Positions 1,350 through 15,252 of a stretch of DNA of 64,000 nucleotides are shown here, one piece after another. Position 1 is the first letter of the stretch. Each line of letters begins with the position of its first letter. The stretch lies in assembly GCF_054482525.1 (NCBI RefSeq), contig NZ_CM137006.1, one strand, 5' to 3'. The notes beneath the pieces were generated by a model. The model was not told the DNA's origin. It saw nothing but the letters and a program-made list of their open reading frames with translations, and did no database searches. Made by a program: the position numbers and the translations under genes.

Positions 1350-4022
1350 ATGACAGATGTAACGATTAAAACGCTGGCCGCAGAGCGACAGACCTCCGTG
1401 GAACGCCTGGTACAGCAATTTGCTGATGCAGGTATCCGGAAGTCTGCTGACGACTCTGTGTCCGCACAAGAGAAACAGACTTTGATTGACCACCTGAATC
1501 AGAAAAATTCAGGCCCGGACAAATTGACGCTGCAACGTAAAACACGCAGCACCCTTAACATTCCTGGTACCGGTGGAAAAAGCAAATCGGTACAAATCGA
1601 AGTCCGCAAGAAACGCACCTTTGTGAAACGCGATCCGCAAGAGGCTGAACGCCTTGCTGCGGAAGAGCAAGCGCAGCGTGAAGCGGAAGAGCAAGCCCGT
1701 CGTGAGGCAGAAGAATCGGCTAAACGCGAGGCGCAACAAAAAGCTGAACGTGAGGCCGCAGAACAAGCTAAGCGTGAAGCTGCTGAACAAGCGAAACGTG
1801 AAGCTGCGGAAAAAGACAAAGTGAGCAATCAACAAGACGATATGACTAAAAACGCCCAGGCTGAAAAAGCCCGCCGTGAGCAGGAAGCTGCAGAGCTCAA
1901 GCGTAAAGCCGAAGAAGAAGCGCGTCGTAAACTCGAAGAAGAAGCACGTCGCGTTGCTGAAGAAGCACGTCGTATGGCGGAAGAAAACAAATGGACTGAT
2001 AACGCGGAACCGACTGAAGATTCCAGCGATTATCACGTCACTACTTCTCAACATGCTCGCCAGGCAGAAGACGAAAGCGATCGTGAAGTCGAAGGCGGCC
2101 GTGGCCGTGGTCGTAACGCGAAAGCTGCGCGTCCGAAGAAAGGCAACAAACACGCTGAATCAAAAGCTGATCGTGAAGAAGCACGCGCAGCAGTACGTGG
2201 CGGTAAGGGCGGAAAACGTAAAGGTTCTTCGCTGCAGCAAGGCTTCCAGAAGCCTGCTCAGGCCGTTAACCGTGACGTTGTGATCGGCGAAACCATCACC
2301 GTTGGCGAACTGGCGAACAAGATGGCGGTTAAAGGCTCTCAGGTCATCAAAGCGATGATGAAACTGGGCGCAATGGCAACCATCAACCAGGTTATCGATC
2401 AGGAAACCGCACAGCTGGTTGCTGAAGAGATGGGCCACAAAGTTATCCTGCGTCGTGAAAACGAGCTGGAAGAAGCGGTAATGAGCGACCGTGACACGGG
2501 TGCAGCGGCTGAACCGCGTGCGCCGGTTGTGACCATCATGGGTCACGTTGACCACGGTAAAACCTCTCTGCTGGACTACATTCGTTCAACGAAAGTGGCC
2601 TCTGGCGAAGCGGGCGGCATTACCCAGCACATTGGTGCATACCACGTTGAAACTGAAAACGGCATGATCACCTTCCTGGACACCCCGGGGCACGCCGCGT
2701 TTACTTCAATGCGTGCTCGTGGTGCGCAGGCAACGGACATCGTAGTCCTGGTTGTTGCTGCCGACGACGGCGTAATGCCGCAGACCATCGAAGCAATCCA
2801 GCACGCGAAAGCGGCGCAGGTTCCGGTGGTGGTTGCAGTGAACAAGATCGATAAACCAGAAGCCGATCCGGATCGCGTTAAGAACGAACTCTCCCAGTAC
2901 GGCATCCTGCCGGAAGAGTGGGGCGGTGAAAGCCAGTTCGTACATGTGTCTGCGAAAGCGGGTACTGGTATCGATGAGCTGCTGGACGCTATCCTGCTGC
3001 AGGCGGAAGTTCTGGAACTGAAAGCGGTACGTAAAGGTATGGCGAGCGGTGCGGTTATCGAATCCTTCCTCGATAAAGGTCGTGGTCCGGTTGCTACCGT
3101 TCTGGTACGTGAAGGTACTCTGCACAAGGGCGATATCGTTCTGTGTGGCTTCGAATACGGTCGTGTTCGTGCGATGCGTAACGAACTGGGTCAGGAAGTG
3201 CTGGAAGCGGGTCCGTCCATTCCGGTGGAAATCCTCGGCCTGTCCGGCGTTCCGGCTGCGGGTGATGAAGTTACCGTTGTACGTGACGAGAAGAAAGCGC
3301 GTGAAGTTGCACTCTATCGTCAGGGTAAATTCCGCGAAGTTAAACTGGCACGTCAGCAGAAATCTAAACTCGAGAACATGTTCGCCAATATGACCGAAGG
3401 CGAAGTTCACGAAGTGAACATCGTCCTGAAGGCAGACGTACAGGGTTCCGTGGAAGCTATCTCCGACTCCTTGCTGAAACTGTCTACTGACGAAGTTAAA
3501 GTGAAGATCATCGGTTCTGGCGTAGGTGGTATCACCGAAACCGACGCTACCCTGGCTGCGGCGTCCAACGCCATCCTGGTTGGCTTCAACGTACGTGCTG
3601 ATGCCTCTGCACGTAAAGTGATTGAAGCGGAAAGCCTGGATCTGCGTTACTACTCCGTCATCTATAACCTGATCGACGAAGTGAAAGCGGCAATGAGCGG
3701 TATGCTGTCTCCGGAACTGAAACAACAGATTATCGGTCTGGCGGAAGTTCGTGACGTATTCAAATCACCGAAATTTGGTGCCATCGCAGGTTGTATGGTT
3801 ACCGAAGGTGTGGTTAAACGTCACAACCCGATCCGCGTTCTGCGCGACAACGTGGTTATCTACGAAGGCGAGCTGGAGTCCCTGCGCCGCTTCAAAGATG
3901 ACGTTAACGAAGTCCGTAACGGTATGGAATGTGGTATCGGCGTTAAGAACTACAACGACGTCCGCACTGGCGATGTGATCGAAGTGTTCGAAATCATCGA
4001 AATCCAACGTACCATCGCTTAA
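1350..4022 (+). CDS. infB: Translation initiation factor IF-2
   Basis: 890-aa ORF with G-domain motifs [14 protein letters not shown] and NKID, and a Glu/Ala/Arg/Lys-rich N-terminal region. In-frame internal starts sit where E. coli IF2-beta and IF2-gamma begin: GTG codon 158 at nt 1821 and ATG codon 165 at nt 1842. Confidence 0.98.
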
Positions 4023-11553: not shown

Positions 11554-12798
11554 ATGGCAACACTAACCACCACCCAAACGTCACCGTCGCTGCTTGGCGG
11601 CGTGGTGATTATCGGCGGCACCATTATTGGCGCAGGGATGTTTTCTCTGCCTGTGGTCATGTCCGGGGCGTGGTTCTTCTGGTCAATGGCGGCGCTGATC
11701 TTTACCTGGTTCTGTATGCTGCATTCCGGCTTGATGATTCTGGAAGCTAACCTGAATTATCGAATCGGTTCTAGTTTTGACACCATCACCAAAGATTTGC
11801 TGGGCAAAGGCTGGAATGTAGTCAACGGCATTTCCATTGCCTTTGTGCTCTATATCCTGACTTACGCCTATATTTCTGCCAGCGGTTCGATTCTGCATCA
11901 CACCTTCGCGGAGATGTCGCTAAACGTCCCTGCACGGGCAGCTGGATTTGGTTTTGCACTGCTGGTAGCGTTCGTGGTGTGGTTGAGTACGAAAGCTGTC
12001 AGCCGGATGACAGCAATTGTGCTGGGGGCGAAAGTCATTACTTTCTTCCTCACCTTCGGCAGCCTGCTGGGGCATGTACAGCCTGCGACATTGTTCAACG
12101 TCGCCGAAAGCAATGCGTCTTATGCGCCGTATCTGCTGATGACACTGCCATTCTGTCTGGCATCGTTTGGTTATCACGGTAACGTGCCGAGCCTGATGAA
12201 GTATTACGGCAAAGATCCGAAAACCATCGTGAAATGCCTGGTGTACGGTACGCTGATGGCGCTGGCGCTGTATACCATCTGGTTGCTGGCGACGATGGGC
12301 AACATCCCTCGTCCGGAGTTTATCGGCATCGCCGAGAAGGGCGGTAACATTGATGTGCTGGTACAGGCATTAAGCGGCGTGCTGAACAGCCGTAGCCTGG
12401 ATCTGCTGCTGGTCGTGTTCTCAAACTTTGCGGTAGCAAGTTCGTTCCTTGGCGTAACGCTGGGTTTGTTTGACTATCTGGCAGATCTGTTTGGTTTCGA
12501 TGACTCGGCTATGGGCCGCTTGAAAACAGCATTGTTGACCTTTGCACCGCCTGTTGTGGGTGGTCTGCTGTTCCCGAATGGATTCCTGTACGCCATTGGC
12601 TATGCTGGCTTAGCAGCTACCATCTGGGCGGCAATTGTACCGGCGCTGTTGGCCCGCGCATCGCGTAAACGCTTTGGCAGCCCGAAATTCCGCGTCTGGG
12701 GCGGTAAGCCGATGATTGCGCTGATTCTGGTGTTTGGCGTCGGCAACGCACTGGTGCATATTTTATCGAGCTTTAATTTGCTGCCGGTGTATCAGTAA
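11554..12798 (+). CDS. mtr: High-affinity tryptophan-specific permease Mtr (ArAAP/HAAAP family)
   Basis: 414-aa polytopic [41 protein letters not shown]..., recognised as Mtr. Confidence 0.96.
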
Positions 12799-12806
12799 TT
12801 GAACGA

Positions 12807-12831
12807 GCCGGATGAGCAGTTTTCATCCGGC
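12807..12831 (+). terminator. Hairpin after mtr (weak terminator, no clean T-run)
   Basis: gccggatgagcagttttcatccggc begins 9 nt after the mtr stop. Confidence 0.4.
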
Positions 12832-12858
12832 AATAATTCACAAGTACACGAGATGGTA

Positions 12859-13389
12859 TCAAATAAACCCCTGTTTATTATAAAGTTCTTCAGCGAGAGT
12901 TTCCCCGTGCTCATCGAAAAAAGCATCGGCGATAGTTAAATTTTCTGCCTTAGGATTTGCCGTTATTTTGCTACCATTGGCATCAAATTCGAGCGCGATA
13001 GCGGTCTCCGAACCCCACCAGTAATAATAAATTAGCGCAAAATTATTTTCCCCTGGCGTAATAAACTTCTCGATTCTCCGCACACAGGCCATGAGTGGCA
13101 TGAAGATTTCATAGCTCTCTGAGAGAAATATGTGATCCATCGTGACTATCTGTGTTTCTTTATTAAAGTTGATATGTTCGGCATAAATATTCTTTTCACT
13201 TTCACCAGAATTACAAGCTGCAAGATTGTTAAGCATTTTTGCAGGATCGCCGTACAACCGCTGCTTCTCGATAAACCATGGTAACCAGTCGTCATAGTCT
13301 TTGATATTTGTTGCTGGTGAATGGAAAAACTTCTCGAGGTTACTCTCGGTAATATGTGCATGAAGAAAAAAGGAAGCCGGTTCACTCAT
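12859..13389 (-). CDS. Hypothetical cytoplasmic protein (176 aa), orphan ORF of the mtr-yhbW islet
   Basis: Uninterrupted 176-aa ORF in visibly AT-rich DNA. It has no signal peptide or TM segment, is acidic and aromatic-rich (..NFALIYYYWWGSETAIALEFD..), and is transcribed divergently from the neighbouring L,D-transpeptidase-like gene. I do not recognise the family. Confidence 0.55.
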   Translation of the reverse strand: MSEPASFFLHAHITESNLEKFFHSPATNIKDYDDWLPWFIEKQRLYGDPAKMLNNLAACNSGESEKNIYAEHINFNKETQIVTMDHIFLSESYEIFMPLMACVRRIEKFITPGENNFALIYYYWWGSETAIALEFDANGSKITANPKAENLTIADAFFDEHGETLAEELYNKQGFI

Positions 13390-13547
13390 GATGATTTTCT
13401 CTGGTAATAAGTCGATTTGTTCATTTCTCTGTTTGGTGATGATAAAACGATGACTATTTTATAAAAGTACAGAACTGGACCTTTCATCTATTTCATATCA
13501 TAAGAAAATATATACAAGAACTGGCTCAGAATAAGCGGAATACGAAA

Positions 13548-14267
13548 ATGGGGCGTAAAGGACTACTTGCTATTGTATTGTTGAGCCTGTTTATCGCCAT
13601 GATTTTTCAATTTTTCTGGCCTGCCCCACACGATGAGCACGTTTTCCTGCTGGTTGAAAAACCTGTCGTACCGTCTTTAAAAATCATTCACGCCGGCGAC
13701 CAGTTATTTATCCGCATTCTGAAAGCGGAAGATAAGCTGGAACTGTGGGCAAGCACCAACAACAAGCCTTACGAACTCTATAAAACCTGGACTATATGCG
13801 CGTGGTCTGGTGGCTTAGGGCCAAAGCACAAACAGGGGGATGGTAAAAGCCCGGAAGGTTTTTATGCCACCAACAAAGGGTTACTTAACCCAAACAGTCG
13901 CTATCATCTGGCATTTAATATTGGTTACCCGAATGCTTACGATCGGGCAAACGGCTACACCGGTGATTTCATTATGGTTCACGGAAACTGCCTTTCGGCG
14001 GGCTGCTATGCCATGACCGATGCTGGTATTGAAGAGATTTATCAACTGGTGGCGCAGGCGCTGAATAGCGGGCAGAAGAGCGTGCCGGTGCATATCTTCC
14101 CGTTTGCGATGAACGAAGAAAATATGCGCCAGGCGCAGGTATGGCCGGAATATAATTTCTGGCGTATGTTGAAGCCCGGCTATGATTACTTTGAAAAAAA
14201 TCGCCGATTGCCAACCATCACCATTGAAAACCGGCGTTATAAAATCAGCCCAACAACTCATCCTTAG
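13548..14267 (+). CDS. YafK/DpaA-like L,D-transpeptidase-fold (YkuD) periplasmic protein
   Basis: 239-aa ORF with an N-terminal hydrophobic signal/anchor ([19 protein letters not shown]). It carries the YkuD catalytic motif [13 protein letters not shown] (His codon 13980-13982, Cys codon 14004-14006). Blocks [33 protein letters not shown] and LKPGYDYFE are colinear with remembered E. coli YafK. Confidence 0.8.
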
Positions 14268-15252
14268 CATCCATCGCCAGTTCAAACGAATGCAGGCGCG
14301 CCTGGTGATCGAAAATCTGCCCGTTAACCATAATCTCATCGGCGTCGGTTTCGCGCAGGATCGACTGCAAGCCGTGACGCACTTTCGCTTTATCGCCCAC
14401 CAGCGACATACTCAGCGCCTGCTGCACGCCATACTGCTCGGACGGTGACCAGAACTGATCCATATTTTGAATCGGCGGCGGTAGTTGCCCGGTTTCGCCA
14501 CGGCGTAGTTTCACAAAGGCTTGCTGCATTGAGGTAAAGAGAAATTCAGCGTCGCGGTTGCTGTCGGCGGCGATAATATTGATGCACACCATCGCATACG
14601 GTTTTTCCAGCCGAGCCGACGGTTTGAAGTTACTGCGATAAAGATGCAGCGCCTGGAACAACATATCCGGCGCGAAGTGTGAGGCAAACGCAAACGGCAG
14701 ACCAAGCTGCGCCGCCAGTTGCGCACTGTAAAGGCTGGAGCCTAACAACCATACGGGGATTTTTTCGCCATAGCCTGGTACCGGGCGCACATGTGGATTG
14801 GGATCGCGGGCGTCAAACCAGTCCACCAGCTCCGCGACATCGCGGGGGAAATTATCAATATCGCCGCTCATATGACGACGTAGAGCCATCATGGTTCGCT
14901 GGTCACTACCCGGAGCACGACCCAGCCCCAAATCGATTCGCCCCGGATAGAGCGTATTAAGCGTGCCGAACTGTTCGGCGATCACCAATGGTGAGTGATT
15001 AGGCAACATCACGCCGCCAGACCCCAGATGCAGCGTAGTGGTATTCGCCGCCAGATAGCCAATCAAAACTGATGTTGCAGCACTGGCAATGCCAGTCATA
15101 TTGTGGTGTTCTGCCAGCCAGTAGCGATGATAGCCGCGCTTTTCAGCCAGACGGGCGAGATCGAGAGAGTGGGAGAATGCTTCTCGCGCTGAAGAACCTT
15201 CGGGAATGGGGGCCAGATCGAGTAGCGAAAACGGAATGGTTTTATCAGTCAT
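14245..15252 (-). CDS. yhbW: Luciferase-like (LLM class) flavin-dependent oxidoreductase YhbW
   Basis: 335-aa [29 protein letters not shown]...YWLAEHHNM..., recognised as YhbW. Confidence 0.93.

Follow-up and report, generated by a model that had tools for sequence, protein, structure and literature searches.

A conserved acidic protein of an uncatalogued family encoded beside a YafK/DpaA-like gene in Escherichia coli and Salmonella

Introduction

When a small protein of no recognisable family is encoded back to back with a cell-wall enzyme, does it serve that enzyme or does it act on its own? The question is raised by a 176-aa open reading frame (ORF) in the 64,000-nucleotide stretch of DNA analysed here (the window), which an earlier note, made from the letters alone, had picked out as the divergent partner of an L,D-transpeptidase-like gene. 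The ORF typifies the enterobacterial 'y-ome' well: its product has been placed in no family, no relative of it has a solved structure and no function has been assigned to it. It appears to be very widespread in Salmonella enterica; in E. coli it belongs to the accessory genes of particular lineages. RefSeq already lists it as a hypothetical protein; the family to which it belongs is itself uncatalogued. The features of the locus to which we refer throughout are the following:

12859–13389, minus strand: the 176-aa ORF, with an ATG start (RefSeq WP_001294023.1, 'hypothetical protein')
13390–13547: divergent spacer between the ORF and the YafK-like gene, 158 bp, 31% GC against 51% for the window
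13548–14267, plus strand: 239-aa YafK/DpaA-like YkuD paralogue (WP_000532751.1, RefSeq 'L,D-transpeptidase family protein')
12799–~14244: two-gene islet of ~1.45 kb, replacing the REP-containing mtr-yhbW spacer of K-12
12807–12831: perfect 9-bp hairpin GCCGGATGA-N7-TCATCCGGC, read from the sequence, between the convergent mtr and ORF stops

A conserved gene for a small acidic protein

The ORF is intact from its ATG over all 176 aa, which bears out its earlier description as long and uninterrupted. The window is E. coli chromosomal DNA; strain SCU-102, which is 100% identical to it over 12700–14400, has the same locus annotated in RefSeq. When 5426 complete E. coli genomes were searched, the full 531 bp were found at ≥94% identity in every one of the 183 carriers (183/183), and the ORF is an ordinary CDS annotation in 40/40 sampled rows of such carriers. 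In Salmonella the corresponding cluster comprises 953 sequences, and two exact variants of the ORF each occur on at least 1000 contigs. The GC content of the ORF is 40.5%, as against 51% for the whole window.

Identity of the protein across genera is 59–72%, and synonymous sites of the orthologues are saturated between genera. Pairwise dN/dS among eight orthologues (from E. coli, Salmonella, Superficieibacter, Chania, Leminorella and a further enterobacterium) ranges from 0.07 to 0.22, and 56 columns are invariant in an alignment of 11 orthologues. At the level of sequence evolution, these comparisons show that 12859–13389 on the minus strand encodes a functional protein and is strongly constrained by purifying selection.

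The product has a pI of 4.70, with 27 acidic (D+E) against 13 basic (K+R) residues, and its aromatic cluster, LIYYYWWGSE, occupies residues 119–128. Its maximal Kyte-Doolittle(19) value is only 0.86, and therefore it has neither a transmembrane helix nor a signal peptide. Acidity, the aromatic cluster and the missing export signal had all been read from the translation before, and each of these observations holds. An AF2 model built from the 11-sequence alignment reached a pLDDT of 84.9 and a pTM of 0.83. The ORF product is a cytoplasmic, acidic, 20-kDa alpha+beta protein with a predicted ferredoxin-like arrangement, and belongs to a sparse, uncatalogued family of ~180 aa.

A family shared by Enterobacterales and Bacteroidota

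The earlier reading could place the ORF in no family, and indeed no Pfam, NCBIfam, PADLOC or PHROG profile accepts it (no match at E<=1). When 30 diverse members of its family were compared with Pfam at E<=10, no Pfam family was matched by more than one of them, and a profile search against PDB sequences returned noise only. Relatives were instead collected by comparing a profile with every one of 1.84 billion cluster representatives; this yielded 133 clusters at E<=1e-3, nearly all of them ~180 aa in length. The family spans Enterobacterales and Bacteroidota, and its named distant members (from Flavobacterium, Chitinophaga, Sphingobacterium and a Cytophagaceae bacterium) are all annotated 'hypothetical'.

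The family is characterised by the motifs MSE(P/L)SS, DW..W, (F/L)SE(N/S)Y and (Y/F)WWG. In 129 non-redundant members, the most conserved residues are W35 (92%), W38 (90%), E3 (89%) and M1 (88%), followed by E91 (84%), S2 (83%), S6 (82%) and W125 (82%), and 97 out of 120 members begin with MSE. The E. coli/Salmonella protein itself departs from the family consensus at several positions (Y75F, D76N, W82V and N92S). Some relatives carry an additional N-terminal segment: in P0039, P0057, P0066 and P0093 a hydrophobic leader is present and the domain starts at S/T-E directly after it, and P0149 has a signal-peptide-like leader before S/T-E; the cleavage sites of these leader-bearing relatives, that of P0149 included, were judged by eye. 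The mature protein would thus keep Ser or Thr at position 1, next to the near-invariant Glu, both in the secreted members and in the cytoplasmic ones, for which removal of the initiator Met is predicted. In one further member, P0033 (399 aa), two copies of the domain are fused in tandem.

Structural comparison by Foldseek, which the earlier note had proposed, and by TM-score gave no confident match to any enzyme family. The ferredoxin-like fold predicted for the ORF product is a common fold class and is uninformative on function. The probable functional kind of the product is judged by analogy only.

The two-gene islet between mtr and yhbW

In K-12 the interval between mtr and yhbW consists of a 117-bp REP-containing spacer only. 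The islet that takes its place is found in 183 of the 5426 complete E. coli genomes (3%), and in all 183 the two genes occur together. The same order, mtr-ORF-YkuD-yhbW, is found in Salmonella, in Superficieibacter electus, in Klebsiella oxytoca-type genomes and in one further enterobacterium. Compared with a Salmonella contig (L016), the islet is 90–98% identical, whereas the flanking mtr and yhbW are 81–88% identical, and dS of both islet genes between E. coli and Salmonella is ~0.2. This indicates that both genes passed together, and recently, between the two genera as a single unit, presumably through homologous recombination in the flanks. No mobility gene accompanies this inter-genus exchange. 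Relatives of the ORF were absent from phage records, plasmid records and viral contigs, the sole 'plasmid' match being a mislabelled chromosome of 4.9 Mb, and a cargo gene of phages or plasmids was rejected on these searches.

The second gene of the islet encodes a protein with a Pfam YkuD domain (27 bits, cutoff 23.4), which scores 250.4 bits on the NCBIfam model LdtF_DpaA_YafK (NF040599), below the equivalog cutoff of 365 bits, and matches PHROG 17304 strongly (3e-65). Its N-terminus forms a hydrophobic segment resembling an export signal or anchor (KD 2.56). The gene is found in Salmonella, in 3% of E. coli, in E. albertii and in E. fergusonii. With DpaA, a PG-Lpp amidase, the YkuD homologues of E. 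coli number six (PMC12729407), and the neighbour would therefore be the seventh. A literature search on a second YafK paralogue found no paper. An extra YafK/DpaA-like enzyme may alter the tethering of the outer membrane in Salmonella and some ExPEC-type E. coli, and the neighbour could modulate the linkage between Lpp and peptidoglycan. At its 3' end the YkuD-like gene (plus strand) overlaps convergently with yhbW (minus strand) by 23 nt (14245–14267), so that its last seven codons are antisense to the C-terminus of yhbW.

The spacer between the two genes had been described as AT-rich and 158 bp long, and at 31% GC over 13390–13547 it is so. Both promoters presumably lie within it, and a simple consensus scan of the spacer for a sigma-70 promoter found none. 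The spacer is conserved among close relatives only, with almost no conservation when it is aligned across genera. A short AAGTnCAGAAnTGGAC-like stretch at 13440–13470, with its equivalent in the spacers of L003 and L006, is the sole part common to E. coli/Salmonella, Superficieibacter and the further enterobacterium, and may be a regulator or promoter element. An Rfam search of 12500–14500 gave no match. The hairpin at the other end of the ORF has no T-run on either strand and was not called by a terminator scan; it may end transcription from both sides or stabilise transcripts.

Is the ORF tied to its neighbour?

The divergent pair, on which the earlier description centred, is kept in five enterobacterial lineages; elsewhere its members are unlinked or stand alone. 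Co-occurrence across genomes, proposed as a check on the pairing, is complete in E. coli (183/183); the pairing breaks down in Leminorella, Chania, Bacteroidota, Budviciaceae and Klebsiella-type loci. In Leminorella, the ORF and the closest YkuD homologue are unlinked, with the latter located after atpC elsewhere in the genome. Budviciaceae likewise have an atpC-linked YkuD gene and no ORF nearby. In Chania the ORF lies beside an Smr-domain gene with no YkuD gene nearby, and no YkuD gene was seen near the family in ~30 Bacteroidota and metagenome loci.

In three independent Klebsiella oxytoca-type assemblies (L057, L058 and L059, around 3740–3781, minus strand), codon 9 of the ORF has lost the same single nucleotide, which changes TTCTTGCAT to TTCTTCAT, and the orthologue in L057 has suffered a second deletion in an A-run. 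The YkuD gene is intact in all three, and its exact protein is indexed in 269 blocks of the sequence collection. Intact 184-aa versions of the ORF do exist in other samples (L063–L065). Frequent disruption in other strains, named beforehand as a sign against the gene, is thus seen only in the Klebsiella oxytoca-type lineage and not in E. coli or Salmonella. As a toxin would not outlive its antidote, a frameshifted ORF next to an intact YafK-like gene counts against an immunity pair.

The suggestion that the ORF product is an immunity protein or inhibitor of its neighbour, already doubted when it was made, is not supported by these comparisons. The product is cytoplasmic and the enzyme has an N-terminal export/anchor segment, so that the two do not share a compartment; strict co-occurrence also fails, with the ORF lost and the enzyme gene kept in Klebsiella-type loci. 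A toxin-antitoxin pair was rejected on the differing compartments, the unlinked genes of Leminorella and the frameshifted ORF beside an intact enzyme gene. More broadly, a toxin/immunity relationship or an obligate partnership of any kind between the ORF and its YkuD neighbour is unlikely, given the unlinked and solo loci, the Klebsiella-type frameshift, the confinement of pairing to the same site and the different compartments.

The ORF product could be a functional partner of the YafK-like paralogue, co-regulated with it from the divergent promoter region that they share, that controls expression or export of the periplasmic amidase/transpeptidase-like enzyme or deals with its consequences, for instance by handling a released muropeptide or Lpp fragment. 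In favour of this are the divergent pairing kept in five lineages despite saturated synonymous sites, the transfer of the pair as a single block and the full co-occurrence in E. coli (183/183). However, all paired cases are at the same chromosomal site and may therefore trace to one ancestral insertion. The unlinked genes in Leminorella, the solitary ORF of Chania and Bacteroidota, the Budviciaceae enzyme gene after atpC with no ORF nearby, the frameshifted ORF beside an intact enzyme gene in Klebsiella-type loci, the separate compartments and a spacer that is not conserved between genera all speak against it, and we consider such a partnership improbable. The same frameshift, together with the missing consensus promoter in the spacer, might instead be taken to mean that the ORF is spurious or decaying and has no function. 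With a dN/dS of 0.07–0.22, 56 invariant columns, an intact frame in 183/183 E. coli carriers and on very many Salmonella contigs, a confident AF2 model and distant homologues in another phylum, that reading is effectively refuted and has next to no chance of being correct. It is very probable that the gene is real, that its family is new and unassigned, and that it functions independently of the gene beside it.

Neighbourhoods in Bacteroidota

In Flavobacterium-type genomes, the family gene occupies a hotspot flanked by conserved ECH/PTPS genes on one side and LpxR/transglycosylase genes on the other. Related genomes differ in what this hotspot contains, and its genes are co-directional with short gaps. 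A second group of loci has a conserved co-directional array of genes for ~110-, 140- (DUF3592), 228- and 184-aa proteins, joined in some loci by TPM, RCC1 or LRR+DUF1963 proteins. The gene immediately upstream of the family member in locus L022 encodes a genuine SUKH-1 protein (28.3 bits, cutoff 25.4), and the one downstream of it in locus L024 encodes an LRR protein. With three matches, SUKH-1 is the joint most frequent Pfam family in a set of 120 neighbour representatives, although three among 120 is a mild enrichment only.

No toxin domain was found in the genes adjacent to the family in ~30 loci, where many neighbours have no Pfam match. The only toxin lead comes from one locus, in which the opposite strand has a MafB19-like deaminase match at a distance of ~3 kb. 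Since Pfam recognises only a minority of the array neighbours, the arrays are no more than candidate immunity loci. They are also not made of paralogues, as hhalign detected no relationship between the family and 18 recurrent neighbour clusters.

Other neighbours were noted in single loci. A Bacteroidota metagenome contig (L010, 1–3704) encodes HEAT_2/DUF4132 and WGR+DNA-ligase-domain proteins followed by small co-directional unannotated ORFs, one of which belongs distantly to the family and another of which encodes a SUKH-like protein that scores below threshold. In Leminorella grimontii (L004, 5663–7699), the ORF orthologue adjoins genes for a 152-aa protein with a SymE toxin domain and a 378-aa Sel1-repeat protein, and a Sel1-repeat protein is also encoded near a distant member of the family in a metagenome locus (L029).

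Possible functions of the ORF product

The ORF product probably works alone and not with its YafK-like neighbour. From its genomic context, we tentatively propose a binding mechanism of the immunity type, which is the single most likely mechanism and still has the odds against it. The product would be a stoichiometric binding or neutralising protein of the 'orphan immunity' kind: in the cytoplasm it would tie up a toxin or another foreign effector entering the cell, and the relatives with a signal peptide would act likewise in the periplasm. Adjacency to the YafK-like gene would then reflect synteny inherited from one ancestral insertion and not functional coupling. This reading is favoured because of the arrays with SUKH and LRR proteins, the small acidic protein, the fusion and signal-peptide variants and the patchy phyletic spread. 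The product is small and acidic with no match to a catalytic family, the family is sporadic across phyla and located in low-GC islets, and both the tandem fusion P0033 and the signal-peptide versions have their like in known immunity families. Against it stand the search for adjacent toxins, which found none, the position of the copy in the window outside any array, and the conservation of the sequence, including the near-invariant N-terminus, E3, W35, W38 and E91, which exceeds that usual for fast-evolving immunity proteins. Should orphan immunity prove true, the ORF marks an unknown toxin aimed at Enterobacteriaceae.

That same conservation, near-invariant N-terminus included, fits equally well with a stand-alone enzyme or a small-molecule binder on a ferredoxin-like scaffold, in which Ser2 (exposed once Met is removed), Glu3, E91 and W35/W38 would form the site. 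Such an activity is rather unlikely, as neither the sequence nor the structure finds a confident match to an enzyme family, the E. coli/Salmonella protein has replaced consensus residues (Y75F, D76N, W82V, N92S), there is no metabolic gene context, and the signal-peptide cleavage sites that would expose the same N-terminus in secreted relatives were placed by eye. Bolder still is the idea of a new type of enzyme or sensor that uses the processed Ser/Thr-Glu N-terminus as its functional group, an Ntn-like site on a ferredoxin-like scaffold; this we regard as quite improbable. A last candidate comes from Salmonella, where the product could be a secreted type III effector. By the gene order of Salmonella LT2 (mtr being STM3279), STM3278 is the presumed counterpart of this ORF. 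A literature search on the locus tags and accessions of the ORF found one effector-prediction table only, from a 2011 computational meta-analysis that ranks STM3278, a 'putative cytoplasmic protein', 44th among effector candidates (PMC3240867). Provided that STM3278 is the ORF, this ranking favours the effector; however, it is a prediction without experiment, the family extends to Bacteroidota with some members bearing Sec signal peptides, and commensals are among the E. coli carriers, all of which makes a type III effector very improbable indeed. Whichever function applies, experiments can be narrowed by the reach into Bacteroidota, the unusually conserved N-terminus and the independence from the cell-wall neighbour.

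Comparison with known systems

One parallel is Tlde1/Tldi1 of Salmonella, a T6SS effector with an L,D-transpeptidase fold and its immunity protein. Here, too, Salmonella has a gene for a cell-wall enzyme of the YkuD fold next to a small gene that fits no known family. Tldi1 is a periplasmic protein, and its gene has the same orientation as that of the effector, which has no signal peptide. In contrast, the enzyme of the islet has an export/anchor segment of its own and is transcribed away from the gene for a small cytoplasmic protein, which can be lost while that of the enzyme persists.

At the level of fold, the Api92/YubB ferredoxin-like domain (DUF1281; PDB 2ijr) was considered as a relative, with TM-scores <=0.37, Foldseek E >=0.026 and no HMM match; the likeness does not go beyond the ferredoxin-like fold, which is very common. 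Ferredoxin-like enzymes of the dimeric alpha+beta barrel or ABM type are a further candidate comparison for the fold. The classical Ntn fold is alpha-beta-beta-alpha, whereas the candidate N-terminal-nucleophile-like site considered here would sit on a ferredoxin-like scaffold. For the neighbour the comparison is with DpaA (YafK/LdtF; PMC8263019, PMC12729407). The neighbour aligns over nearly the full LdtF_DpaA_YafK model, and its YkuD domain contains the HG...SAGC motif, but it falls under the equivalog cutoff, is found in only 3% of E. coli and has an anchor-like hydrophobic N-terminus.

The reading that we favour, an orphan immunity protein, finds its counterpart in the heterogeneous polyimmunity loci, in which genes for SUKH, LRR and other, unrelated small alpha+beta proteins stand together in co-directional arrays that vary between strains (Zhang et al. 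2012, PMC3482391). The ORF family differs from the orphan immunity genes of these loci in that it matches no catalogued Imm or SUKH profile, its E. coli/Salmonella copy lies outside any array, no cognate toxin is found beside any of its members and its sequence conservation is unusually high. Its Bacteroidota members lie in variable co-directional arrays with SUKH-1 and LRR proteins, which may be loci of this kind. It resembles the orphan immunity genes in encoding small, acidic alpha+beta proteins that lack an enzymatic signature, in its patchy distribution across phyla, and in having both tandem-fusion and signal-peptide versions.
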